Of a DNA stretch of 64,000 nucleotides, positions 1,727 to 12,600 are shown piece by piece (the stretch's first letter is position 1; every line of letters starts with the position of its first letter). The DNA is taken from assembly GCA_036521415.1 (NCBI GenBank), contig DATDHU010000154.1:10741-74740 (forward strand). Direction: 5' to 3'. This DNA is from Acidimicrobiales bacterium (GTDB lineage: Bacteria; Actinomycetota; Acidimicrobiia; Acidimicrobiales; RAAP-2). The position numbers and the translations under genes are program-made. Below the pieces are notes generated by a model. The model worked only from the letters and a program-made list of their open reading frames with translations, did not search any database and was not told the DNA's origin.

Positions 1727-2731
1727 TCAATGGGTGTTGACGAGGGCTCGTAGGGATTGGCGCAAGGAGTCCATGCTGGCGATCACCGACGTGGGCTCGT
1801 ACCCACAGTGGGCCATGCAGTTGGCACAGCGCGGGTCCTTTCCCCGGCCGTAGGCGTCCCAGTCGGTCGTCTCCACCAGCTCCTTGTAGCTGGTGGCATA
1901 GCCGTCGGACATCAGGTAGCAGGGGCGCTGCCAGCCCAGAACCGAGTAGCTGGGGATCCCCCAGGCGGTGCAGGAGAACTCCTGCTTGCCCTCGAGGAAG
2001 TCCAGGAACAGGGGCGAATGGTTAAGGCGCCACTTCTTGCGCTTCCCGTCGAAGGCGTCCCGGAACAGCTTCCGGGTCTGGTCGACACCGAGGAAGTGCT
2101 CCTGGTCGGGGGCCTTCTCGTAGGCGTAGGCGGGTGAGATCATCATGGCGTCGACCTTGAGGTCGTCGTTCAAGAAGTCGAGAACGTCCCGGACGGTCTT
2201 GGGCGAGTCGGTATTGAAGAACGTGGAGTTGGTCGTCACCCGGAAGCCCTTCTCCTTCGCCTCCCGGATGGCCGCCACCGCCTCGTCGAACACTCCCTCC
2301 CGGTCGACGGCGGCGTCGTGGCGCTCCTTCATGCCGTCGATGTGCACGACCCAGGAGAAGAAGTGCGACGGCGCGAAGCGCTCCAGGCGGCGCCGGAGCA
2401 GCACGGCGTTGGTGCACAGGTAGACGTACACCTTGCGGCGGATGAGCTCGGCCACGATGCGCTCCATGTCCGGGTGGAGGAGAGGCTCACCCCCGGCGAT
2501 GGAGACCATGGGCGTCCCGGTCTCCTCCACTGCTTGGAGGATGTCCTCCATCGACAGCCGCTTCCTGAGGATGTCGGTGGGATGCTGGATCTTTCCGCAA
2601 CCCGGGCACGAGAGGTTGCATGCGAACAGTGGCTCGATCTCCACGATGAAGGGATAGTGCTTGACGCCCTTCAGCTTCTGCCGGAGCAGATGGGATCCGA
2701 TCTTCATGTTCTGTCGGAGAGGTATGGGCAT
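1727..2731 (-). CDS. hpnH: adenosylhopane synthase (radical SAM) HpnH
   Basis: ORF 1727..2944 trimmed to internal ATG 2731 (MPIPLRQNMKIGSHLLRQKLKG..). Has the radical-SAM motif CNLSCPGC and end-to-end HpnH-like sequence (WGIPSYSVLGWQRPCYLM, CANCMAHCGYEPT). The ATG overlaps the upstream stop (TAATG). Confidence 0.9.
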   Translation of the reverse strand: MPIPLRQNMKIGSHLLRQKLKGVKHYPFIVEIEPLFACNLSCPGCGKIQHPTDILRKRLSMEDILQAVEETGTPMVSIAGGEPLLHPDMERIVAELIRRKVYVYLCTNAVLLRRRLERFAPSHFFSWVVHIDGMKERHDAAVDREGVFDEAVAAIREAKEKGFRVTTNSTFFNTDSPKTVRDVLDFLNDDLKVDAMMISPAYAYEKAPDQEHFLGVDQTRKLFRDAFDGKRKKWRLNHSPLFLDFLEGKQEFSCTAWGIPSYSVLGWQRPCYLMSDGYATSYKELVETTDWDAYGRGKDPRCANCMAHCGYEPTSVIASMDSLRQSLRALVNTH

Positions 2732-4212
2732 TAGCGCACCGCCTGAGGTAGAGAGAAATGGGCACTTTCTTCCGTGGTCCGATGCTCGGTGACGACCACC
2801 GGACCGAGGTCCGAGACGCTGTCGATCACGCGTTGGACTAGGAATTCCGGAGCAGACGCACCGGCGGTGATGCCGACGGTCTCCACGCCGTCGAACCAGC
2901 TCAACCGGAGGTGCGTCTCGTCTTCGATCAGCTCGGTCCGGCAACCCTCGCGCCTGGCCACCTCGACCAGACGGGCCGTGTTGGACGAATTGGCCGAACC
3001 GACCACCAAGAGCAGGTCGCAGAGGTCGACCATGCCCCGCACCGCGTCCTGGCGGTTCTGGGTGGCGTAACAGATGTCGTTGGAGTTGGGGCCGTGCAGG
3101 TCGGGGAACCGGTTGCGCAGGGCGGCGATGATCTCGGCCGTCTCGTCGGTGGCCAGGGTGGTCTGGGTGAGGTAGGCCACCTCGGCACCGGGCTCGATGT
3201 CGAGGGCGGCCACGTCCGCCGGTCGCTCGACCAGGGCCATGGGCGCCTCGCCCAGCGTGCCGGCGATCTCCTCGTGACCCTCGTGGCCGATCAGGACGAT
3301 CTGGTAGTCGTGGGAGGCAAAGCGGCGGGCCTCGTGGTGGACCTTGGTCACCAGCGGGCAGGTGGCGTCGATGACCGACAGGTCGCTGCGGCGGCCCGCC
3401 TCCTCGCGGACCTTAGGCGAGACGCCGTGGGCGGCGAGGACGACGACGGCCCCGGCCGGCACCTCGTCGAGCTCCTCCACGAAGATCGCCCCCTTCCCCT
3501 CTAGGTCGGCGACGACATGGCTGTTGTGCACGATCTGCCGGCGGACGTAGACCGGCGAGCCGAAGCGTTCGATGGCCCGCTCCACGATCTCGATGGCCCG
3601 CTCGACGCCGGCACAGAACGAGCGCGGCGCGGCGAGCACGACGTGGTGCCGGCCGACAGCGCCGGCCCAGCGTTCCAGCGAGGGTCGCACCCGCATCAAG
3701 GTGGCGAGGGCCCGCATCCCGCCGACCGCCATGTCGGCCAGGCCACCCTCGGCCGTGTCCGAGATGGCGCGCACAACGGCTACGGGCTGGTCGAGCGGGA
3801 GCTGATCGACCAACCAGGCCGACTCCATGTCCACCGCGATGGCGCCGGTAGCGGCGAGAGCCGCCCTCGACGCATCCCGGACGAGGTGGAGTGAGGACAC
3901 GATCGGCCCGGTACGGACGTCAAGGCCCTTCTGGCGGAGGTCGTCGGCGATCCGCTCGGCCCCGGGAAGCGACCGGACGATGCTCCCGTCGACGGTGCGC
4001 ACCTCGGTCGCCACCACCAGTTGCCCGAGCGGCAGATCGGGATCCAACCCACCGGCCACGCCGACGAGGGCGATGGCCTGCGAGGAGGGCGAGGCGGCCA
4101 GCCTCGCCCCCGAAGCGGTCGCCTTGGCCCGGCCCATCCCGATGCGGGGCACGGCCCCGCCGACAGCCATGGCCTCGATGCGTAGCGGCGACACGACGGT
4201 GAGGTCAGCCAT
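2731..4212 (-). CDS. hpnG/ispH: fusion protein: hopanoid-associated phosphorylase/nucleosidase (HpnG-like) N-terminal domain + 4-hydroxy-3-methylbut-2-enyl diphosphate reductase (IspH/LytB) C-terminal domain
   Basis: ORF 2731..4332 trimmed to ATG 4212 (MADLTVVSPLRIE..). The first ~225 aa have the PNP_UDP fold motifs GVAGGLDPDL, AVDMES and VRAISD. The last ~265 aa are IspH with all three cluster cysteines (SFCAGV, DATCPLVTKVH, NDICYATQNRQ). One uninterrupted frame. Confidence 0.85.
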   Translation of the reverse strand: MADLTVVSPLRIEAMAVGGAVPRIGMGRAKATASGARLAASPSSQAIALVGVAGGLDPDLPLGQLVVATEVRTVDGSIVRSLPGAERIADDLRQKGLDVRTGPIVSSLHLVRDASRAALAATGAIAVDMESAWLVDQLPLDQPVAVVRAISDTAEGGLADMAVGGMRALATLMRVRPSLERWAGAVGRHHVVLAAPRSFCAGVERAIEIVERAIERFGSPVYVRRQIVHNSHVVADLEGKGAIFVEELDEVPAGAVVVLAAHGVSPKVREEAGRRSDLSVIDATCPLVTKVHHEARRFASHDYQIVLIGHEGHEEIAGTLGEAPMALVERPADVAALDIEPGAEVAYLTQTTLATDETAEIIAALRNRFPDLHGPNSNDICYATQNRQDAVRGMVDLCDLLLVVGSANSSNTARLVEVARREGCRTELIEDETHLRLSWFDGVETVGITAGASAPEFLVQRVIDSVSDLGPVVVTEHRTTEESAHFSLPQAVR

Positions 4213-6229
4213 GGGTCCGCTCCGCAACGGCGCCGCCGGTCTTCCCGCCAAGGTGGCGGCTCTCCTGACCCACGCCAAGGTGGCGGCTGTCTTGCCTACC
4301 GCCAAGGTGGCGGCTGTCCTGCCTACCGCCAAGGTGGCGGCCGAGGGCCATCACCGGGAAGATCAGGCGGTACAGGTGGTAGTTGATGTAGAAGTCCCCA
4401 GGGAAGCCGGTGCCGGTGAACCAGGGCTCGTCCCAGGTCCCGTCGTCTCGCTGGGTGCCGACCAGGAACTCGATGCCGGCGTCGGCGGACGTCCCCTGGC
4501 GCCCGGCGGCGAGGAGGGCGAGGAGGGCCCAGGCCGTCTGGGAGGCGGTCGAGGTCCCTTGCCCGCCCAGGCTCGGGTCTCGGTAGGAGCGGAGGTCCTC
4601 ACCCCAGCCACCGTCGTGGTTCTGATGGGACTCGAGCCACCGGACCGCCTTGGCCAGAGCCGGGTGCTCGGGCCCGATGCCCGCCGCGGTGAGGGCCGGT
4701 ACCACGGCCCCGGTGCCGTAGACGTAGTTGGCTCCCCAGCGACCGAACCAGGAGCCGTCGGCCTCCTGCGCGTCGAGCAGCCACTGGACGCCGCGGTCCA
4801 TGGCCGGACCGCGGCGGCCCAGCACGGCCAGCATCTCGACCACGTGGGCGGTGACGTCCGCGCTCGGTGGGTCGATGAGCTCACCGAAGTCGCAGAAGGG
4901 GAGCTCCTCGCACAGGCCGCGGGTGTTGTCGGCGTCGAAGGCACCCCAGCCACCGTCGCGGCACTGCATCCCCTCGATCCAGGCCACGGCCCGGTCGATG
5001 GCCCCTTCGGCGGAGACGTCGCAGTGCCGGAGGGCCAGCACCACCTCGGCCGTGTCGTCGATGTCGGGGTAATGGTCGTTGGCGAACTCGAACGCCCACC
5101 CGCCGGGAGCGAGACGGGGCCGCCGGATGCTCCAGTCCCCCCTGATGGTGACCTCCTGGCCCAACAGCCAGGCGCCGGCCTCTCGCATGCCCTGGTCGGT
5201 GGGCAACGTGCCCGCATCGGCCAACCCGATGACGGCCAGGGCCGTGTCCCACACCGGTGACTGACAGGCCTCGAGGCGACGGCCGGCCTCGTCCTCGATG
5301 GTGAAGCCGTCCAGCCCGTCCAGGCCGGCGCGCATGACGGGATGATCGAGCGGGTAGCCCTGTAGATGCAGCGCCATGAGCGAATAGACCCAGGGAGGCT
5401 GGATCCCGCCCCAGGATCCGTCAGCCTCTTGGCGCTGCACGATCCATCGCTCGGCCCGCTGCAGTGCCAGCTTGCGCAGCACGGAGACGGGCCGGCGCTC
5501 GTAGACGTGGAGCAATCGGTCGAGCCGCTCGAAGCGCCTCCCCCACCGGCTGGTGGGCCTGTGCGGGGGCAGTGTCCCGGTCCGGAGCTCGTCGATGGTC
5601 ACCGGGATGGGGCGAACAGGTCGGTGGGCACTGATCACGGTTAGGGCGGCGACCGTCTGACGGGCCCAGCAACCAAAGTCGTAGATGTTGAGGGGCACCG
5701 ACGGCGGGAGGAGCATGAGCTCGGGCGGCATGACCGGGAGGTCCTCCCACGACCAGAGCCCGAACAGCGCCATCCAGATCCGGGTGAAGACCCGGCTGGC
5801 CTCCAGGCCGCCGGAATGGCGGACGAATCCCGCGGCCCGGGCCATGTGTGGCGCGTCGACTCCGTCGCCGGCCAGTCGGAGGGCCACGTAGGCCTCGATG
5901 GTGGTGGAGAGGTCCGGCGGGCCTCCGTGGAAGGTGGCCCAGGTCCCGTCGTCGCGCTGGCGGGAGCGGATCCACGTCGCCGTCCTCTGCGTCTGGTCAT
6001 CGGTGCGGATCCCGAGGAACTGGCGCAACAGGAGGTCTTCCGCCTCCATGGTGACGTTCGTCTCGAGCTCACCTTTCCACCAGCCGTCGGGATCCTGCAG
6101 CCGGCCCAGTGCGCCGACGGCGCGGGTGAGCGCTTCGCCCGCGGTCCGGTCGAGGCGGTGCCCGTCGGTGCCCGTGGCTTCGGCGTCAGGCGCCCGGTCG
6201 AAGACCGAGGAGCTGGTGGTGGCGGTCAT
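4205..6229 (-). CDS. shc: squalene-hopene cyclase with a repeat-extended C-terminus
   Basis: 674 aa with the DxDD motif (YPDIDDTAEVV) and QW-type repeats (RQRDDGTW, QEADGSWGG, QNHDGGWGE, QRDDGTWDE). The C-terminus carries about four copies of RHLGGRQDS. Confidence 0.93.
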   Translation of the reverse strand: MTATTSSSVFDRAPDAEATGTDGHRLDRTAGEALTRAVGALGRLQDPDGWWKGELETNVTMEAEDLLLRQFLGIRTDDQTQRTATWIRSRQRDDGTWATFHGGPPDLSTTIEAYVALRLAGDGVDAPHMARAAGFVRHSGGLEASRVFTRIWMALFGLWSWEDLPVMPPELMLLPPSVPLNIYDFGCWARQTVAALTVISAHRPVRPIPVTIDELRTGTLPPHRPTSRWGRRFERLDRLLHVYERRPVSVLRKLALQRAERWIVQRQEADGSWGGIQPPWVYSLMALHLQGYPLDHPVMRAGLDGLDGFTIEDEAGRRLEACQSPVWDTALAVIGLADAGTLPTDQGMREAGAWLLGQEVTIRGDWSIRRPRLAPGGWAFEFANDHYPDIDDTAEVVLALRHCDVSAEGAIDRAVAWIEGMQCRDGGWGAFDADNTRGLCEELPFCDFGELIDPPSADVTAHVVEMLAVLGRRGPAMDRGVQWLLDAQEADGSWFGRWGANYVYGTGAVVPALTAAGIGPEHPALAKAVRWLESHQNHDGGWGEDLRSYRDPSLGGQGTSTASQTAWALLALLAAGRQGTSADAGIEFLVGTQRDDGTWDEPWFTGTGFPGDFYINYHLYRLIFPVMALGRHLGGRQDSRHLGGRQDSRHLGVGQESRHLGGKTGGAVAERTHG
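4247..4345 (-). repeat. 27-bp in-frame tandem repeat, ~3.7 copies, at the 3' end of shc
   Basis: The core gccaaggtggcggc recurs at 4247, 4274, 4301 and 4328, exactly 27 bp apart. It encodes ..ALGRHLGGRQDSRHLGGRQDSRHLGVGQESRHLGGKTGG.. on the minus strand. Confidence 0.9.
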
Positions 6230-7227
6230 CGGTCGCGCTCGGTCACGAACTGGGCGATGGCCTCCAACTGGGAGCGGGGGCCGGGGAGGAGGTCGGCCCG
6301 GTCCAGAGACGTGAGCGCCGCGTCCAGGTGGGACTCGGCGATGCCCATGGCCTCGTCGCGAGCGCCGCTCTCCTCGATGAGCCGGGCGGCCTCGATGACG
6401 TCGTCTCCCGCCAGCGGGCGACCGAGCAGTGCGGCGAGCTCGGGACGCCGACCGTCGACGCGGGCCAGTGCGGTGACGACCGGGAGGGTCATCTTGTGCT
6501 GGACCAGATCGTTGCCGGCCGGCTTACCGGTCTGGCTCGGCTCGCCCCAGATCCCCAGCACGTCGTCGATGGCCTGGAAGGCGATGCCCACGTTGCGGCC
6601 GAAGTCGGCTAGGGCGGCCACGGTGGGGTCGGGGGCACCGACCAGCAGGGCGCCGAGCGACGAGGCACAGGACAACAGGGCCCCTGTCTTCCCGGTGGCC
6701 ATGCGCAGGCACTCCTCCACAGTCACCGAGGCTCGGGTCTCGAAGGCCATGTCGTCGGCCTGGCCGGCGATCATCTCCTGGGTGGCCGTGGTCAGGGCGG
6801 CCGTGGCCCGCACCCGCTCGGGGGTGGGATCGTCGAGCAGCACCTGGGTAGCCAGCGCGGCCAATGCATCCCCGGCGATGATGGCCGAGCCGATCCCGAA
6901 CTGGGCCCAGACGGTCGGGCGATGACGCCGGTCGCGGTCCTCGTCGATGATGTCGTCGTGGAGCAGCGAGAAGTTGTGGACCAGCTCGATGGCCACGGCT
7001 CCGGGGATGCCCGTCTCCTCGGTGCCGCCGGCCGCCGCCGCCGAAACCAGCACCAGTGCGGCCCGGACCCGCTTGCCCCCGCCGGCCAGGTGATGGCGGA
7101 CTGGCTCGGCCAGCTCGGGGCTGAGGCGGTCGACAGCCGCATCGAGAGCCGGAGTGACGAGCGCGGCGGCGCGCCCCAGGGACTCGGGGAGGAGTGCGGG
7201 AACCGTCGTTGCCGGAGAGGCGGTCAT
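6226..7227 (-). CDS. polyprenyl (farnesyl/geranylgeranyl) diphosphate synthase of the hopanoid cluster
   Basis: ORF 6226..7629 trimmed to ATG 7227 (MTASPATTVPALL..), which overlaps the hpnE stop (ATGA). First Asp-rich motif LLHDDIIDED, second FQAIDDVLG. Confidence 0.85.
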   Translation of the reverse strand: MTASPATTVPALLPESLGRAAALVTPALDAAVDRLSPELAEPVRHHLAGGGKRVRAALVLVSAAAAGGTEETGIPGAVAIELVHNFSLLHDDIIDEDRDRRHRPTVWAQFGIGSAIIAGDALAALATQVLLDDPTPERVRATAALTTATQEMIAGQADDMAFETRASVTVEECLRMATGKTGALLSCASSLGALLVGAPDPTVAALADFGRNVGIAFQAIDDVLGIWGEPSQTGKPAGNDLVQHKMTLPVVTALARVDGRRPELAALLGRPLAGDDVIEAARLIEESGARDEAMGIAESHLDAALTSLDRADLLPGPRSQLEAIAQFVTERDR

Positions 7228-8621
7228 TGTGGGACTCCTTCGAGCCTGGGGGCCGGGACTCCTTGGAGATGGAGGGGCGGGTTGTCGCGTTCGCTGCTCT
7301 GCTCGCTGCCGGCCTCGGCCAGGGCCACCGCCGCAGCCGACTGCCCGCTGCGCACCGCCCCCTCCATGGTCGCCGGCCAACCCGTGTCGCACCAGGCGCC
7401 AGCCAGCGCCAGGCCTCGGAGGCCGGTCCGCGAGGAGGGCCGCAATGCGGCCGTCCCAGGAACAGCGCGGAAGGTGGCTGCGCGCTCGCGGCTGACCGTG
7501 CCGTCGACAAGGCGAGCGTGGCGGGCCGCCGGGAGCAGTTCGTCGAGAGCCTGGCGGAACGAGCGCACTAGGTCCTCGGGGCGCTGGCCGATGACGGCAT
7601 CGGCCCCTGACAACGAGATGGCCAGGCACTGCCCTTGAGCCAGGCCGGACGAGGCCGTGCGGTCGAACAGGAACTGGATCGGGGTGCCCATGCCGGCGGC
7701 CATGGGGAGGTCGGTCACCCGGCGATCGAGGACCAGGTGCACGTTGACGATGGGCGAGGTGCCCAGTCCGTCGACGGCGGGCAGGACGCCCTTTGGAACG
7801 AGGGCAGCGGTCACCTCGGGCGGTGTGGCGACGATCACCGAATCAGCGCGCACCGGGCCGTCGGGAGTGGCGACGGTCCAGCTGCCGTCAGTGGCGCGGG
7901 AGACCCCCTCGACCCGGGACCCGAGCCGCACGTCGACGCCGGACGCCGACAGAGCCCGCGACCCGTTCTCGGCGTGCAGCTGCCGCAGGGGTACCTGGGA
8001 CCACCCGATGTCACCGCCGTCGGCGCTGTCGAGCAGGCCGGTGCGGAAGACCTTGACCGCCAAGGCCAGGGACGCCTCGGCGGCGGGCACATTGACCGTG
8101 GGAAGGGTGATGAGGTCCCACAGACGCTCGACGGCCCTGGCGCTCTGCCCGTGATCGGCCAGCCACCGCCCGAAGGTGATGCGGTCGAGTGCGGGGTCGT
8201 GAGGGTCGAGGCGGCGCATGGCCAGGACGGCGCGCCCCAGCCCGGCCCGTTCCCCCACACTGAGGAAGCGGTAGCGGGCCAACGAACCGGCGAGGTGGAA
8301 GGGGGCGGGCAGGTCGGTGCGGGTGATGGACGCGGTGATCCCCCCCGGCGCCAGGACGGGCACCTCGAGCCGGGGCTGGAGCGACACCTCGCCCGTGGCC
8401 CCGATGCGTTCCAGGAATCCGCGGTAGGCGGTGCAGCACCGCATGAAGACGTGCTGGCCGTTGTCGAACCAGAGACCGTTGCGGCGGAACGACCAGGTGA
8501 GCCCGCCCAACCGGGAGCGCCGCTCGAAGACGACGACGTCGGCCCCCCCGTCGACGGCGGCCAGTGCAGCACTGACGCCGGCCAGTCCCCCTCCGATGAC
8601 CGCTATGCGCGGGCAGGTCAC
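7224..8621 (-). CDS. hpnE: hydroxysqualene dehydroxylase (FAD amine-oxidase family) HpnE
   Basis: GTG 8621 overlaps the hpnD stop (GTGA) and gives VTCPRIAVIGGGLAGVSAALAA.. (dinucleotide fold). Phytoene-desaturase-like throughout and in the expected position after hpnC-hpnD. Confidence 0.8.
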   Translation of the reverse strand: MTCPRIAVIGGGLAGVSAALAAVDGGADVVVFERRSRLGGLTWSFRRNGLWFDNGQHVFMRCCTAYRGFLERIGATGEVSLQPRLEVPVLAPGGITASITRTDLPAPFHLAGSLARYRFLSVGERAGLGRAVLAMRRLDPHDPALDRITFGRWLADHGQSARAVERLWDLITLPTVNVPAAEASLALAVKVFRTGLLDSADGGDIGWSQVPLRQLHAENGSRALSASGVDVRLGSRVEGVSRATDGSWTVATPDGPVRADSVIVATPPEVTAALVPKGVLPAVDGLGTSPIVNVHLVLDRRVTDLPMAAGMGTPIQFLFDRTASSGLAQGQCLAISLSGADAVIGQRPEDLVRSFRQALDELLPAARHARLVDGTVSRERAATFRAVPGTAALRPSSRTGLRGLALAGAWCDTGWPATMEGAVRSGQSAAAVALAEAGSEQSSERDNPPLHLQGVPAPRLEGVPQ

Positions 8622-9457
8622 GGAGTGCCACCGGAGATGCTGCGCAGGGCGATGTACCCCTTCTCCCATGCCGGCAGCGACACCCGCCCGCGGGTCACGG
8701 CGATCGGGTCCCGCTCGATGCGAGCCAGCAGGCGGCGATAGATGCCGGCCATGGCCGAGACACAGGCGCGGCTCCTCCGGTCGAGCAGTGGGAGCAGCCG
8801 GAGCCCTCGATCGAACCACTCACGCGCCCGCACGCACTCGAAGGCCACGAGGTCAGCCACGGCCGACGGCGGCCCGCTCAGGTCGGGCGGGCAGCCCACC
8901 GCTTCTGCGTCCTCGGTCGGCAGGTAGACGCGACCACGCTCGCCGTCCTCGATGATGTCCCGGAGGATGTTGGTCAGCTGGAGGGCCACGCCGAGGTCGT
9001 CGGCCAGCGGGTTGGCTACGGTCACGTCGTCCACCCCGAAGATGGCGAGTGACAGGCGGCCCACCGAGCCGGCTACCCGGCGGCAGTAGCCCACCAGGTC
9101 GTCGATGGTGGCGTACTCCGCCCCCCCGACGTCCATGACACAGCCGTCGATCAACTCGCCGAACGCAGCCATGGGCAAGCCGTAGCGCGCCGCGGCATGG
9201 GCGACACCGGCGAGCACCGGGTCGTCGGTCTCGGCCGAGACGGGCTCCAGGTCCTTGCGGACGGCGGCCAGCTCCTCGAGACGCTGGGCGGCGGGCGCGT
9301 CGCCGTCGCCGATGTCGTCAATCCTCCTGGCCAGGGCGTAGACAGCCGACAGGGCGTGCCGCTCGGGCTCTTTGAGCAGGCGGATGCCGTAGGCGAAGTT
9401 CTTGGCCTCACGACGGGTGATGGCCTCGCACTCGAGATAGGCGGCATCGGCATTCAT
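8618..9457 (-). CDS. hpnD: presqualene diphosphate synthase HpnD (squalene/phytoene synthase family)
   Basis: 279 aa with AKNFAYGIRLL, YALARRIDDIGDGD and LQLTNILRDIIED. Second gene of a tandem SQS/PSY pair; ATGA overlap with hpnC. Confidence 0.85.
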   Translation of the reverse strand: MNADAAYLECEAITRREAKNFAYGIRLLKEPERHALSAVYALARRIDDIGDGDAPAAQRLEELAAVRKDLEPVSAETDDPVLAGVAHAAARYGLPMAAFGELIDGCVMDVGGAEYATIDDLVGYCRRVAGSVGRLSLAIFGVDDVTVANPLADDLGVALQLTNILRDIIEDGERGRVYLPTEDAEAVGCPPDLSGPPSAVADLVAFECVRAREWFDRGLRLLPLLDRRSRACVSAMAGIYRRLLARIERDPIAVTRGRVSLPAWEKGYIALRSISGGTP

Positions 9458-10401
9458 GCGGCGGCCCCACCTTCGGATGATGGGAAACGGCTCGATGTCG
9501 CGGCCTGGTCTGCCGACGCGGTTTGGTCAGGTCCGCCTTGTTCGGGCGATGCGAAGAGGGTGGTCGCCAGGCGGGCCACGATCCCGAGGGGCCGGGGCTT
9601 GCACCGCGTGCCCAAGACGTCGTACCCGGCGCGCTGGATTGCATCGAGGGCGGCTTCGCCGCCGCCCACGAAACCGGCGACCGCGGCGCGCGGTTGCCAG
9701 GGCAGGCCTCCGCTCAAGGGCCGACCCGCGGCCAGGCGACGGCGCGCCCGGTTGACGTGTACCGCCACCAGGCGTTGGAGCGAGGGGCCGGCACGGGGGG
9801 CCAACAACTGGTCCTCAGTGACCCCGAAGGCCGCCCGGTCACGGGCCGGGAGATAGATCCTGCCGCGGATCGCGTCTTCGCCGATGTCTTGGAGGTGCTC
9901 TGTCAGCTGCAGCCCGATGCACACCTCGTCGGACAGCGCGACCCGAGCCGGTGTGCTAGCGCCGAACACCAAGAGCACCAACTGGCCGACCGGAACGGCC
10001 GAGAGCCGGCAGTAGTCGGCCAGCTCCTCGATCGTCTCGTAACGCCGGACCGTCTGGTCGACCCGGTTGGCTTCGATCAGGGCGCGAAAGGGATCGAGGG
10101 GCAGGCTCAGTTCGGACAAGGTCGGCATCAGCCGCACGAGGATGGGATGGGTGGCCGTTCCCTCGTTGGCCCGCTCGAGCTCGGACTCGAGCCAGTCGAG
10201 CTGGGCCGGGCGGTCGCCTTCGACCTCGTCGCCGATGTCGTCGGCCAAGCGGGCGAACCCGTAGATGGCCATCAAGTGGGAGCGCACCCGGCGGGGGAGG
10301 AAGAACGAGGCGACGGGGAAGTTCTCCGAGCGGGCCTGACCCAGGATCGCGTCGGCATCAAGGTCTGGGATCGATGGTGAAACTCCTAGGGAGGATGGCA
10401 C
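9454..10401 (-). CDS. hpnC: hydroxysqualene synthase HpnC (squalene/phytoene synthase family)
   Basis: ENFPVASFFLPRRVR, IYGFARLADDIGDE and GLQLTEHLQDIGED. GTG start at 10401; a slightly later start cannot be excluded. Confidence 0.8.
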   Translation of the reverse strand: MPSSLGVSPSIPDLDADAILGQARSENFPVASFFLPRRVRSHLMAIYGFARLADDIGDEVEGDRPAQLDWLESELERANEGTATHPILVRLMPTLSELSLPLDPFRALIEANRVDQTVRRYETIEELADYCRLSAVPVGQLVLLVFGASTPARVALSDEVCIGLQLTEHLQDIGEDAIRGRIYLPARDRAAFGVTEDQLLAPRAGPSLQRLVAVHVNRARRRLAAGRPLSGGLPWQPRAAVAGFVGGGEAALDAIQRAGYDVLGTRCKPRPLGIVARLATTLFASPEQGGPDQTASADQAATSSRFPSSEGGAAA

Positions 10402-10418
10402 GTTTGACCGGACCTTCG

Positions 10419-10454
10419 TATAACAATGGTGACCAGCGGTTCGCCACTGTTATA
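10419..10454 (-). promoter_or_regulatory. AT-rich 36-bp imperfect palindrome 18 nt upstream of hpnC; candidate operator or promoter core of the hopanoid operon
   Basis: TATAACAATGGTGA-ccagcggt-TCGCCACTGTTATA. The arms match 12 of 14 as reverse complements. It is conspicuously AT-rich in a GC-rich background. Confidence 0.45.
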
Positions 10455-10556
10455 CATCGGGATCGCCAGGGGCCCAACATCCCACCCGAACAGGGCTATT
10501 GCCCGTTCCGTATGGTTTGGCCCCGACCCAGATCGGGCCAGCTGAGAACGCCTGTT

Positions 10557-11570
10557 CTACCGCATTCCCATCGAGACCCGGAAGAGTCGCAACAAGGCGT
10601 TGTCCGCCACCCGCCGTCCGGCGCTCAGGGCGGCGTGGCCCTTGGCCCGGAGGTGGGGCGACACCCGTCCGGCGATTCCCTCGGTGATCCCCGAGGCGAT
10701 GCCGGCGACGTCGGTCTCCCCCCGAAGCTCGCGCGTCATGATCTCGAGGTACAGGGGAACGAAGGGCTTGAGCAGCGTGGCCAGCTCGGCCACTGCCTTC
10801 GTCTCGCTCATCGGCTCGTTGAGCGTGTCGAGCCCTTCACCCACGGCATCCACAGTTGAGAGGGCGGCGGCCAGGAAGATGTCGTGCTTCGAATCGAAGT
10901 AACGGTAGAACGAGCCCTTGGCGATGCCGGCCGCCTCGCAGATCTGGCCGACGTTCACCGTCGCGTAGCCCTCAGAGGCGAACGCCTGACGCGCCGCAGC
11001 CAGCAGCCGGGCCGCGGGAAGGGATGGCTCTGACCGGACGAGGTAGGTGGTCACGATCTGGTCCCACATCTCGACCGAGTAGGGCTCGGTTCGTTCGACG
11101 GCCAGTAGCTCGGGCAAGAGCTCGCCGATGGACGGAAGGGACAGTCGCCACCGGTCCCGGAGCAACCGGATCAGCTTGAGCGCCTCGACGTGCCGCTCGT
11201 CATAAAGGAACCGCTTCGACTCGACAGCGGTGGGCTCGGGCACCAGGCCCAGCCGGCGATAGTGGTGGATGCTGGGCACCGGGACCCCTGATCGGTCCGC
11301 CAGCTCGGCCACGGTGAGTAGGGCCGTGACGTCGCCGACCGGTCCGGTCGATGCGGTGCTGTCCCCGATGGCCGGCCCGCCCGGGGCGGCATACCCCTCG
11401 GGGCTCTCGAGTGCTGACCCGTCGACTGCCCCGGCGGCTGACGCGTCGCCACGCCCGGCGGCTGACCCGTCGGCATCCGCGGTCACCGACCTGACGATTG
11501 ACCGGGTGGCCGCCAACCCATCGGGAGCCGGGGGCGACGATCGCAGTTGATTCCGACGCTTACGGGTCAT
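10557..11570 (-). CDS. two-HTH transcriptional regulator: MerR-type HTH followed by a TetR-type HTH and ligand domain
   Basis: After an Ala/Gly/Asp-rich ~80-aa N-terminus comes LLTVAELADRSGVPVPSIHHYRRLGLV..ERHVEALKLIRLL (MerR HTH). Further on is TVNVGQICEAAGIAKGSFYRYFDSKHDIF (TetR HTH), followed by a helical C-terminal domain. Confidence 0.75.
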   Translation of the reverse strand: MTRKRRNQLRSSPPAPDGLAATRSIVRSVTADADGSAAGRGDASAAGAVDGSALESPEGYAAPGGPAIGDSTASTGPVGDVTALLTVAELADRSGVPVPSIHHYRRLGLVPEPTAVESKRFLYDERHVEALKLIRLLRDRWRLSLPSIGELLPELLAVERTEPYSVEMWDQIVTTYLVRSEPSLPAARLLAAARQAFASEGYATVNVGQICEAAGIAKGSFYRYFDSKHDIFLAAALSTVDAVGEGLDTLNEPMSETKAVAELATLLKPFVPLYLEIMTRELRGETDVAGIASGITEGIAGRVSPHLRAKGHAALSAGRRVADNALLRLFRVSMGMR

Positions 11571-11629
11571 CGCCCTCCTTGCTCGTGGTCATGGTAGCCC
11601 TCACGTGGGCCACCAACCTGTTCGCGGCC

Positions 11630-11652
11630 GGTGAGGTTCAATTGGTCTCACC
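11630..11652. promoter_or_regulatory. 23-bp palindrome upstream of the MerR/TetR regulator gene; candidate autoregulatory operator
   Basis: GGTGAG-g-ttCAATTGg-t-CTCACC. The outer 6-bp arms are perfect and the centre CAATTG is self-complementary. Lies 60-82 nt upstream of the start at 11570. Confidence 0.4.
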
Positions 11653-11811
11653 AAGTCGTCCGGCGCCGCTGGGTCCTACCCGGATCGCAGGTCGAAGCTA
11701 ACCGGGCGTGGACCACGAACAGGGGTCAGCCCGTCCGCCCGCACCTCGCCAAGGCTCCGTACGGTTCACCCGATCCCCTAGGATGACCAGGCGATCGAGT
11801 CTCATGGGGGT

Positions 11812-12600
11812 GTGTTCGTGGGGATTGACGGCGTGGCTCCCTCGAGAGTGGTCGGGGCCGCGGTCGGGCTGGCCCTGGCCGCCAACTATGTGCCGAGCAC
11901 GGTCACGCTCGGGCAGTGGAGCCCGCTCCGTTCCCTCCCCCGCGACCTCTGTCGATGGCGCGGACCGAAGGGGAGAAAGGTGGCGCTCACATTCGACGAC
12001 GGCCCCAACCCACACACCACCCCACACCTGCTCGATCGGCTCGACCAGTTGGGTCTTCGCGCCACCTTCTTCTGCGTGGGCTCGCTCGTCGAGCGCGACG
12101 GGGACGTCGTCGGCGAGATCGCCCGCCGTGGCCACCAGGTGGAGACCCACGGCTATCGGCACGAACACCATCTCCTCCGGTCTCCGCAGTGGATCGTCAA
12201 GGACCTGCGACGGGCCATCGAGGTCATGGCCGGGTGCGGCCATCCCTCGTCGTGGTACCGGCCGTCCTACGGCCAAGCGACCGGCGCCACGCTGGTCGTC
12301 GCCCGGGCCCTCGGACTGCGGACGGTGCTGTGGTCGTCGTGGGGACGGGAGTGGGCCACCAACGACCCGAACGAGGTAGCCGAGCGCGTCACCAGCCGGC
12401 TCGGCGGTGGGGCGATCATCCTGCTCCACGACAACGACGAGCTGGGCTCTCCGGGCATGTGGCGCGTCGGCCATGCAGCCTTGCCCCGGTTGGCCGCCGA
12501 GCTCGAACGCCGGGAGCTGGTTGCCGTCACACTTGACGAGCTGGTCCCAAACCGCCGGTCGGAGGCACGCGAAGCCGCTGGTATCGAAGTCGGCGCATAG
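11812..12600 (+). CDS. polysaccharide deacetylase (NodB homology domain) family protein
   Basis: LTFDDGPNPHTTPHLLDRLDQLGLRATFF, ETHGYRHEH, WYRPSYG and ILLHDND motifs. GTG start. Confidence 0.8.
   Translation: MFVGIDGVAPSRVVGAAVGLALAANYVPSTVTLGQWSPLRSLPRDLCRWRGPKGRKVALTFDDGPNPHTTPHLLDRLDQLGLRATFFCVGSLVERDGDVVGEIARRGHQVETHGYRHEHHLLRSPQWIVKDLRRAIEVMAGCGHPSSWYRPSYGQATGATLVVARALGLRTVLWSSWGREWATNDPNEVAERVTSRLGGGAIILLHDNDELGSPGMWRVGHAALPRLAAELERRELVAVTLDELVPNRRSEAREAAGIEVGA

Follow-up and report, generated by a model that had tools for sequence, protein, structure and literature searches.

Repressors of the TetR family normally act as homodimers on a palindromic operator that overlaps the promoter of an adjacent gene, and are released from it by a ligand; their C-terminal domain usually spans helices alpha4 to alpha9/10, some 130–150 residues that serve both ligand binding and dimerization. 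Activation of the MerR type requires an operator dyad inside a 19–20-bp promoter spacer, a coiled-coil dimer, and an effector domain. Here we describe a protein of 337 residues that carries a helix-turn-helix (HTH) of each class, encoded in a 64,000-nt stretch of an Acidimicrobiales bacterium (GenBank assembly GCA_036521415.1, contig DATDHU010000154.1; this whole stretch is referred to below as the window) directly 5' of the operon for hopanoid biosynthesis. Hopanoids are among the main compounds that make membranes rigid and serve as key biomarkers in geology; to our knowledge, how cells control their production is very poorly understood. From a comparison that is based on sequences and models throughout, the regulator is most likely a repressor of the TetR type that carries a MerR head as well. 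It would serve the hopanoid pathway of the Acidimicrobiia alone, and it is atypical in its short C-terminal domain. Positions are window coordinates unless another locus is named, and the genes, domains, and promoter elements that we assign lie on the minus strand.

The regulator gene (10557..11570) is an uninterrupted frame of 337 codons with an ATG start and a Shine-Dalgarno sequence, AAGGAGG, 3–4 nt 5' of it (approximately 11574..11580); start codon and Shine-Dalgarno sequence are both kept in the homologous loci L100 and L001 and in other homologues that begin MTRKR, a start common to several relatives. Both HTH domains that a sequence-only reading of the window had proposed for this one chain score above their Pfam cut-offs: MerR_1 (PF13411) at 48.3 bits against 21.6 over residues 86–154 (11109..11315), and TetR_N (PF00440) at 66.4 bits against 24 over residues 189–235 (10866..11006), with PF00376 under its cut-off (25.7 versus 28.2 bits). 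The low-complexity N-terminus that was also noticed is confirmed as residues 1–83 (11322..11570), a tail rich in Ala, Gly, Asp, and Ser that opens with a conserved MTRKRR motif and differs in length among homologues, the window copy being the longest in the alignment. NCBIfam models named for TetR and MerR equivalogs score only below threshold, which places the regulator outside every named regulator family. The protein is almost certainly a real dual-HTH regulator.

The AlphaFold2 monomer model has a mean predicted local distance difference test score (pLDDT) of 77 and a predicted template modeling score (pTM) of 0.50, with pLDDT of ~80 to >90 across both folded domains and below 50 in the tail, which is modeled as disordered. 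The MerR head has the canonical arrangement, with helices at residues 87–94 and 98–106, a wing at 114–123, and helices at 125–139 and 145–157. Its best sequence match in the PDB is the MerR protein of B. megaterium (4ua1), aligned over residues 5–85 and stopping at the start of alpha5. What follows is a short connector (residues 155–186, 11013..11108; pLDDT 63–69) with a single 14-residue helix (166–179), which in the model is the remnant of MerR helix alpha5, and then TetR helices alpha1–alpha3 and four further helices. These four make up a reduced TetR-like domain (residues 236–337, 10560..10865), for which the earlier description as a TetR-like ligand domain holds in part: it is all-helical, and the top Foldseek matches of the model are the lipid-sensing TetR repressors FasR, FadR, EthR, and KstR (E-value ~3e-4), but it is short, about 100 residues, and has no Pfam TetR_C match.

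The fusion is conserved as a family. Among 5.8 billion proteins searched, the regulator has more than 120 clusters of homologues at 90% identity, all with PF13411 and PF00440, and every cluster bearing a source name is labeled Acidimicrobiales; a profile search of 1.84 billion representatives returned 116 clusters at 50% identity with E<=1e-30. The view that two HTH classes in one chain are uncommon is therefore right in that the architecture is rarer than plain TetR proteins, but it is recurrent, given these 116 clusters and the further MerR_1+TetR_N families described below. Our literature searches for MerR-TetR fusions gave no paper. Across an alignment of 33 homologues, little or no variation is seen in the wing and the recognition helix of the MerR head (I-H-H-Y-R, including H102, H103, Y104, and R105) or in the recognition helix of the TetR head (A-K-G-x-F-Y-R-Y-F, with K218, G219, F221, and Y222 invariant), and the connector between the heads has a constant length. 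The recognition-helix residues of both heads are also conserved across the 23 loci in which we examined the adjoining DNA.

Placement directly 5' of the hopanoid operon, which had been noted for the window, proved to be conserved across Acidimicrobiia families. In all 16 Acidimicrobiia loci from a genome collection, hpnC-D-E-shc-hpnG/ispH-hpnH lies directly 3' of the regulator on the same strand, and this synteny persists at 31–36% regulator identity, in the sponge-associated Poriferisocius. The same order appears in six further loci from a survey of the class and in L100 and L101, and hpnC-hpnD-hpnE with the rest of the operon is found 3' of the regulator, on the same strand, in 24 of the 24 loci whose contig reaches far enough. 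The class survey, an even sample of 401 Acidimicrobiia genomes whose members are related and hence not independent, so that we attach no p-value to it, contains the regulator in 9 genomes and squalene-hopene cyclase in 12; all nine are among the twelve, and they span at least eight families. Searches of the literature for a dedicated regulator of a hopanoid operon or of the pathway gave no paper.

A second link between regulator and operon is the palindrome in front of hpnC (9454..10401, the first gene of the operon), which the sequence-only reading had mentioned in passing as a different palindrome; it is real, and the alignment of loci makes it the conserved feature and the candidate operator. 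Its inner dyad reads GCGAAC-CGCT-GGTCAC in the window (10429..10444) and GTGACC-N4-GGTCAC in the family consensus, and it occupies the same position in all 23 loci examined. It begins 4 nt past a putative −10 box (TATAAC, 10449..10454), which is itself 17 nt past a putative −35 box (10472..10477; TTGGGC in the window, TTGAC in most relatives in a positional alignment of 17 loci). The full layout is shared by the 23 loci: TTGAC, 16 or 17 nt, a TATAAC-like −10, about 4 nt, GTGACC-N4(5)-GGTCAC, AAGGAG, and the start of hpnC, with the dyad ~32 nt from the start of the TTGAC in most of them. The geometry is unchanged in the Poriferisocius clade, where the −35 falls inside the 3' end of the regulator gene. 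The promoter assignment rests on this cross-locus alignment; a consensus promoter and terminator scan of 10300–11900 gave no match, and it misses the hpnC promoter because the weak −35 and a −10 ending in C fail the scan rule. Among the first 17 loci the half-site T is fixed in 33 of 34 half-sites and the G in 34 of 34, which indicates read-out of the sequence by a protein rather than RNA pairing. Two cyclase-positive genomes without the regulator that we inspected (G382 and G355) have no such dyad 5' of hpnC. We also considered the palindrome as an RNA hairpin and regard this as unlikely: the left arm holds the −10 box and so lies outside the hpnC mRNA, and the half-sites are conserved in sequence, without compensatory change.

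The symmetry extends beyond the inner dyad. In the window the dyad sits inside a nested palindrome of 40 bp (10417..10456) formed by outer arms TGTATAACAGTG and CATTGTTATACG, recognized from its symmetry and from a position weight matrix (PWM); 15 of its 20 pairs are symmetric, and no other 40-mer of the window reaches 15. Symmetric outer arms (CGTATAACA / TGTTATACG) often flank the dyad in other loci as well. Over 16 non-redundant loci, an outer arm and its own partner agree at 6.1 of 12 positions; the background value is 2.8, and arms paired across loci give 4.6 (permutation p = 0.006, right arms shuffled among loci). The arms vary by clade and are partly symmetric within each: ATAACA/TGTTAT in the window, ACAAAA/TTTTGT in L014–L016, and GCGAACAA/TTGTTCGC in L099.

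On balance we favor the reading that the protein is a dedicated, ligand-released local repressor of the hopanoid operon that binds through four nested heads, and its parts carry different degrees of confidence. Repression at the hpnC promoter through the conserved dyad is probable from the aligned sequences, since a dyad 4 nt past the −10 would cover the transcription start, the position of a steric repressor. That both types of head touch DNA in a nested arrangement is nearly an even call. More tentative is the complete model, in which a four-headed dimer, MerR heads outside and TetR heads inside, would lie on one face of the 40-bp palindrome and act as a ligand-responsive hopanoid switch that senses a pathway or membrane lipid. 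Dimerization would occur through the TetR C-terminal domain, the sole plausible dimerization module of the protein, which would hold the TetR heads roughly a helical turn from each other, a distance that matches the 10 bp between the centers of the inner half-sites; together the two heads would grip the 16-bp inner dyad where transcription starts. That domain would be unable to span the 28 bp between the outer arms. These arms lie ~9 bp outside the inner half-sites, at the next major groove of the same face, where a MerR head on its short connector could fit; we therefore propose that the two MerR heads, no longer dimerized by a coiled coil, recognize the symmetric arms there, giving the order MerR-TetR-TetR-MerR along the 40-bp element. 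Once bound, the protein would occupy about −15 to +25 and, with the left outer arm coinciding with the −10 box, would shut out RNA polymerase. Binding of a hydrophobic ligand within the TetR-like core would then release the repressor and turn on squalene and hopanoid synthesis. The fold neighbors and the pathway suggest, with low confidence, a hydrophobic lipid or isoprenoid, and our guess would be an isoprenoid, a hopanoid, or an acyl-type lipid; that the ligand is a lipid of the pathway itself is rather doubtful.

Several points weigh against this reading. The case is comparative throughout, and heads are assigned to sites by geometric reasoning; recognition-helix substitutions compared with half-site variants across the loci showed too little variation to assign heads to sites. 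The monomer model, with a pTM of 0.50, does not fix the orientation of the domains relative to each other. The C-terminal domain falls short of the usual length of a TetR ligand domain and lacks a TetR_C match, so that a ligand pocket is not assured, and its fold matches are modest (template modeling scores of 0.4–0.6 on the target, at the E-value given above). Three of the 12 cyclase-positive genomes of the class survey are without the regulator. A dyad of the hpnC type, at 10 or more of 12 matching positions, was found 5' of the regulator gene in no locus. Finally, some clades have poor outer arms or none (1 of 12 matches in L084, 4 of 12 in L085 and in L088). The left arm also coincides with the −10 box, and the right one borders directly on the Shine-Dalgarno sequence; some of the conservation seen in the arms may be due to other constraints.

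These last observations also suit an ordinary TetR-type repressor of the hpn genes, in which only the TetR heads would contact DNA, at the 16-bp dyad, and the MerR head would be a structural, dimerizing, or partner-binding module. The outer-arm symmetry would then be a by-product of the −10 box and of the 5' untranslated and Shine-Dalgarno region, as the overlap of the left arm with the −10 would allow; the inner dyad alone is universal, and R105 of the MerR head is substituted in L084, L085, and L013. Against this reading, the MerR head keeps H102, H103, Y104, R105, and its wing with little or no change among 33 homologues, and constraints from the −10 and the Shine-Dalgarno sequence alone do not predict arms that vary by clade and yet remain partly symmetric within each. 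We consider this alternative less likely than the favored reading, though it is the strongest of those weighed here, and continue with nested binding by both head types as the preferred arrangement.

A broader regulator, with its main targets elsewhere, for example among lipid or stress genes, and the hpn operon as one link of several, is improbable. Other MerR_1+TetR_N families do adjoin genes of acyl-CoA metabolism (as in L017), and the genome assembly is only 87% complete. However, when the 3.3-Mb assembly was scanned for dyads with an extended half-site PWM, the hpnC site scored 47 bits and no other site exceeded 18 bits, and the occurrence of the regulator tracks that of the cyclase across the class survey.

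Still less probable is a MerR-style activator that would untwist an over-long spacer upon ligand binding, the mode raised by the sequence-only reading when it mentioned the distortion of 19-bp-spacer promoters. The head is a bona fide MerR_1 domain by Pfam and by its alignment to 4ua1, and the −35 is weak in the clade of the window (TTGGGC here, TTCGCC in L001). Yet of four defining features of the MerR family that we compared, the winged HTH is the only one present, and the other three fail: the long alpha5 coiled-coil helix is cut to about 14 residues ahead of TetR alpha1, a TetR module stands in the place of the C-terminal effector-binding region, and the dyad lies ~4 nt downstream of the −10, not between the hexamers, with a spacer of 16–17 nt rather than 19–20 nt. 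Of the TetR features, the HTH exceeds the gathering score of PF00440; the C-terminal domain is all-helical but has only four helices; and, as a candidate for the operator that a ligand-released homodimer would bind, all 23 loci have a 6-4-6 dyad where transcription of the neighboring hpnC is predicted to start. The protein also shares the features of the hpn-linked MerR_1+TetR_N family of Acidimicrobiia: the domain order, the four-helix C-terminal domain, the gene 5' of hpnC, and the dyad between them. An assembly or frameshift artifact that fused two adjacent regulator genes, a concern raised with the original observation and one for which we found no supporting point, is refuted by the recurrence of the same single-chain architecture, with a conserved connector length, across more than 120 homologue clusters from many independent assemblies.

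The DNA on the other side of the regulator gene offers less. A palindrome of 23 bp does occur at 11630..11652 (no strand assigned), as had been reported, but its suggested role as an operator does not stand. It consists of 6-bp arms and an off-register CAATTG and is symmetric at 14 of 23 positions; inverted repeats of this geometry, 6-bp arms around an 11-nt spacer, occur 39 times in the window, where 1066 of the 23-mers show as much symmetry. The palindrome is altered in L100, which is 96% identical, and absent from L001 and L101. Being at chance level and unconserved, it is rejected as an operator and is probably non-functional. At about 11590–11640 (minus strand), two elements do not vary among the window, L100, L001, and L101: a GAGGGCTACCAT block with a TACCAT that resembles a −10 box, and a short G-GACCA motif. 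The DNA around them does vary. This region may be the promoter of the regulator itself, possibly with a half-site. Between the regulator stop and the hpnC −35 there is also an imperfect hairpin, CGGAACGGGC-AATA-GCCCTGTTCG (10487–10510, minus strand). Conserved in both L100 and L001, this hairpin may terminate transcription of the regulator gene or, given its GAAC/GTTC dyad, be a further binding site.

The operon that would be controlled runs hpnC-hpnD-hpnE-polyprenyl synthase-shc-hpnG/ispH-hpnH-dxs and extends to window position 3. Its members score as follows with NCBIfam models: HpnC at 292 bits, above the cut-off; HpnD at 271 bits, just under it; HpnE at 397 bits; squalene-hopene cyclase at 746 bits; and HpnH at 510 bits. 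The polyprenyl synthase (6226–7299) reaches about 361–362 bits with its best model, that of a family 2 encapsulin cargo polyprenyl transferase, which is under its cut-off. The hpnG/ispH gene (2731–4212) encodes a fusion of 493 residues in which IspH scores 426 bits and an HpnG-like nucleosidase N-terminus scores 71 bits with TIGR03468, under the cut-off. Matches in tblastn searches suggest the same fusion in L002–L012, and in L014–L016 the HpnG-like part alone matches at this position. A dxs homologue was found by tblastn in the L013 locus too, where dxs is inserted first, ahead of the hpn genes. In L101 (4009–5766), whose regulator homologue is P0005, hpnC and hpnD are called as one SQS_PSY gene of 585 residues, possibly an HpnC-HpnD fusion. 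Within the family to which the window belongs, 17 other sampled genomes all lack both regulator and cyclase, which do occur in more distant families; this patchy distribution suggests acquisition by transfer, loss on several occasions, or a contig binned in error (contamination of the metagenome-assembled genome is 7%).

The family offers a testable handle on hopanoid control, with one small protein, one predicted operator of 40 bp, and an operon that leads from dxs and ispH through squalene to extended hopanoids. If the complete four-headed model is true, the regulator would be the first ligand-responsive switch dedicated to the transcription of hopanoid genes and the prototype of a wider, unstudied class of two-headed MerR-TetR repressors. 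It would also be a natural case of how two HTH classes in one chain share a composite operator, of value for the study of regulator evolution and for the design of orthogonal repressors with long operators.

Among known systems, FasR of M. tuberculosis (6o6o/6o6p), FadR of B. subtilis (3whb), EthR, and KstR resemble the regulator in that a PF00440 HTH is followed by an all-helical domain, and each of the four controls a lipid pathway locally; TetR repressors typically have an operator that is palindromic and overlaps the promoter, as predicted here. The regulator differs from them in its extra MerR head, its disordered tail, its hopanoid-synthesis target, a predicted operator extended to 40 bp, and a C-terminal domain of four helices and about 100 residues, without a TetR_C match, where theirs have ~6–7 helices. 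With the canonical MerR activators (such as 4ua1, CueR, SoxR, and TipA), it aligns in the winged HTH over alpha1–alpha4 and shares the IHHYxxxGLL recognition helix and the RFxY wing; unlike them, it has neither the long alpha5 coiled coil nor a C-terminal effector site, and its operator is not placed between the −35 and the −10, which are 16–17 nt apart. MerR-type heads without the MerR coiled coil have a counterpart in BldC and in CarH and LitR, B12 photoreceptor repressors of carotenoid genes, which we liken to the regulator by description only: in them, too, the winged HTH is a modular head for reading DNA, mounted on a different scaffold for oligomerization or sensing. CarH and LitR likewise govern an isoprenoid pathway, as we propose for the regulator; in this group of proteins the partner of the head is a B12-binding domain or is missing, where here it is a TetR module, and they read direct repeats.

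The other MerR_1+TetR_N families (L017 of the Dehalococcoidia; P0153–P0264) have the same domain order as the regulator, and differ in longer, complete TetR C-terminal domains or extra domains, in some cases tandem-duplicated, and in adjoining acyl-CoA or catabolic genes rather than hpn genes. All ten relatives sampled from them carry both domains, with ~94–109 residues from the start of one to the start of the other, a spacing that fits a fixed two-head geometry. The L017 fusion, of 306 residues, adjoins an acyl-CoA dehydrogenase gene, and the DNA 5' of it (7770–7965 of that locus) contains several GGTCA/TGACC and TATTGAC/GTCAATA repeats, including CTATTGAC-N34-GTCAATAG, whose TGAC/GTCA core resembles the half-site of the hpn operator. 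The regulator's top PDB sequence match is Mce3R of M. tuberculosis (9b7y), which has two TetR modules per chain and so sets a precedent for several HTHs in a single TetR-type chain, although both of its heads are of the TetR type and form a pseudo-dimer, and those of the regulator come from different HTH classes. Three relatives (P0210, P0226, and P0238) are single chains of 450–570 residues with two MerR_1 and two TetR_N domains, or one MerR_1 and two TetR_N, and would be single-chain pseudo-dimers analogous to Mce3R.

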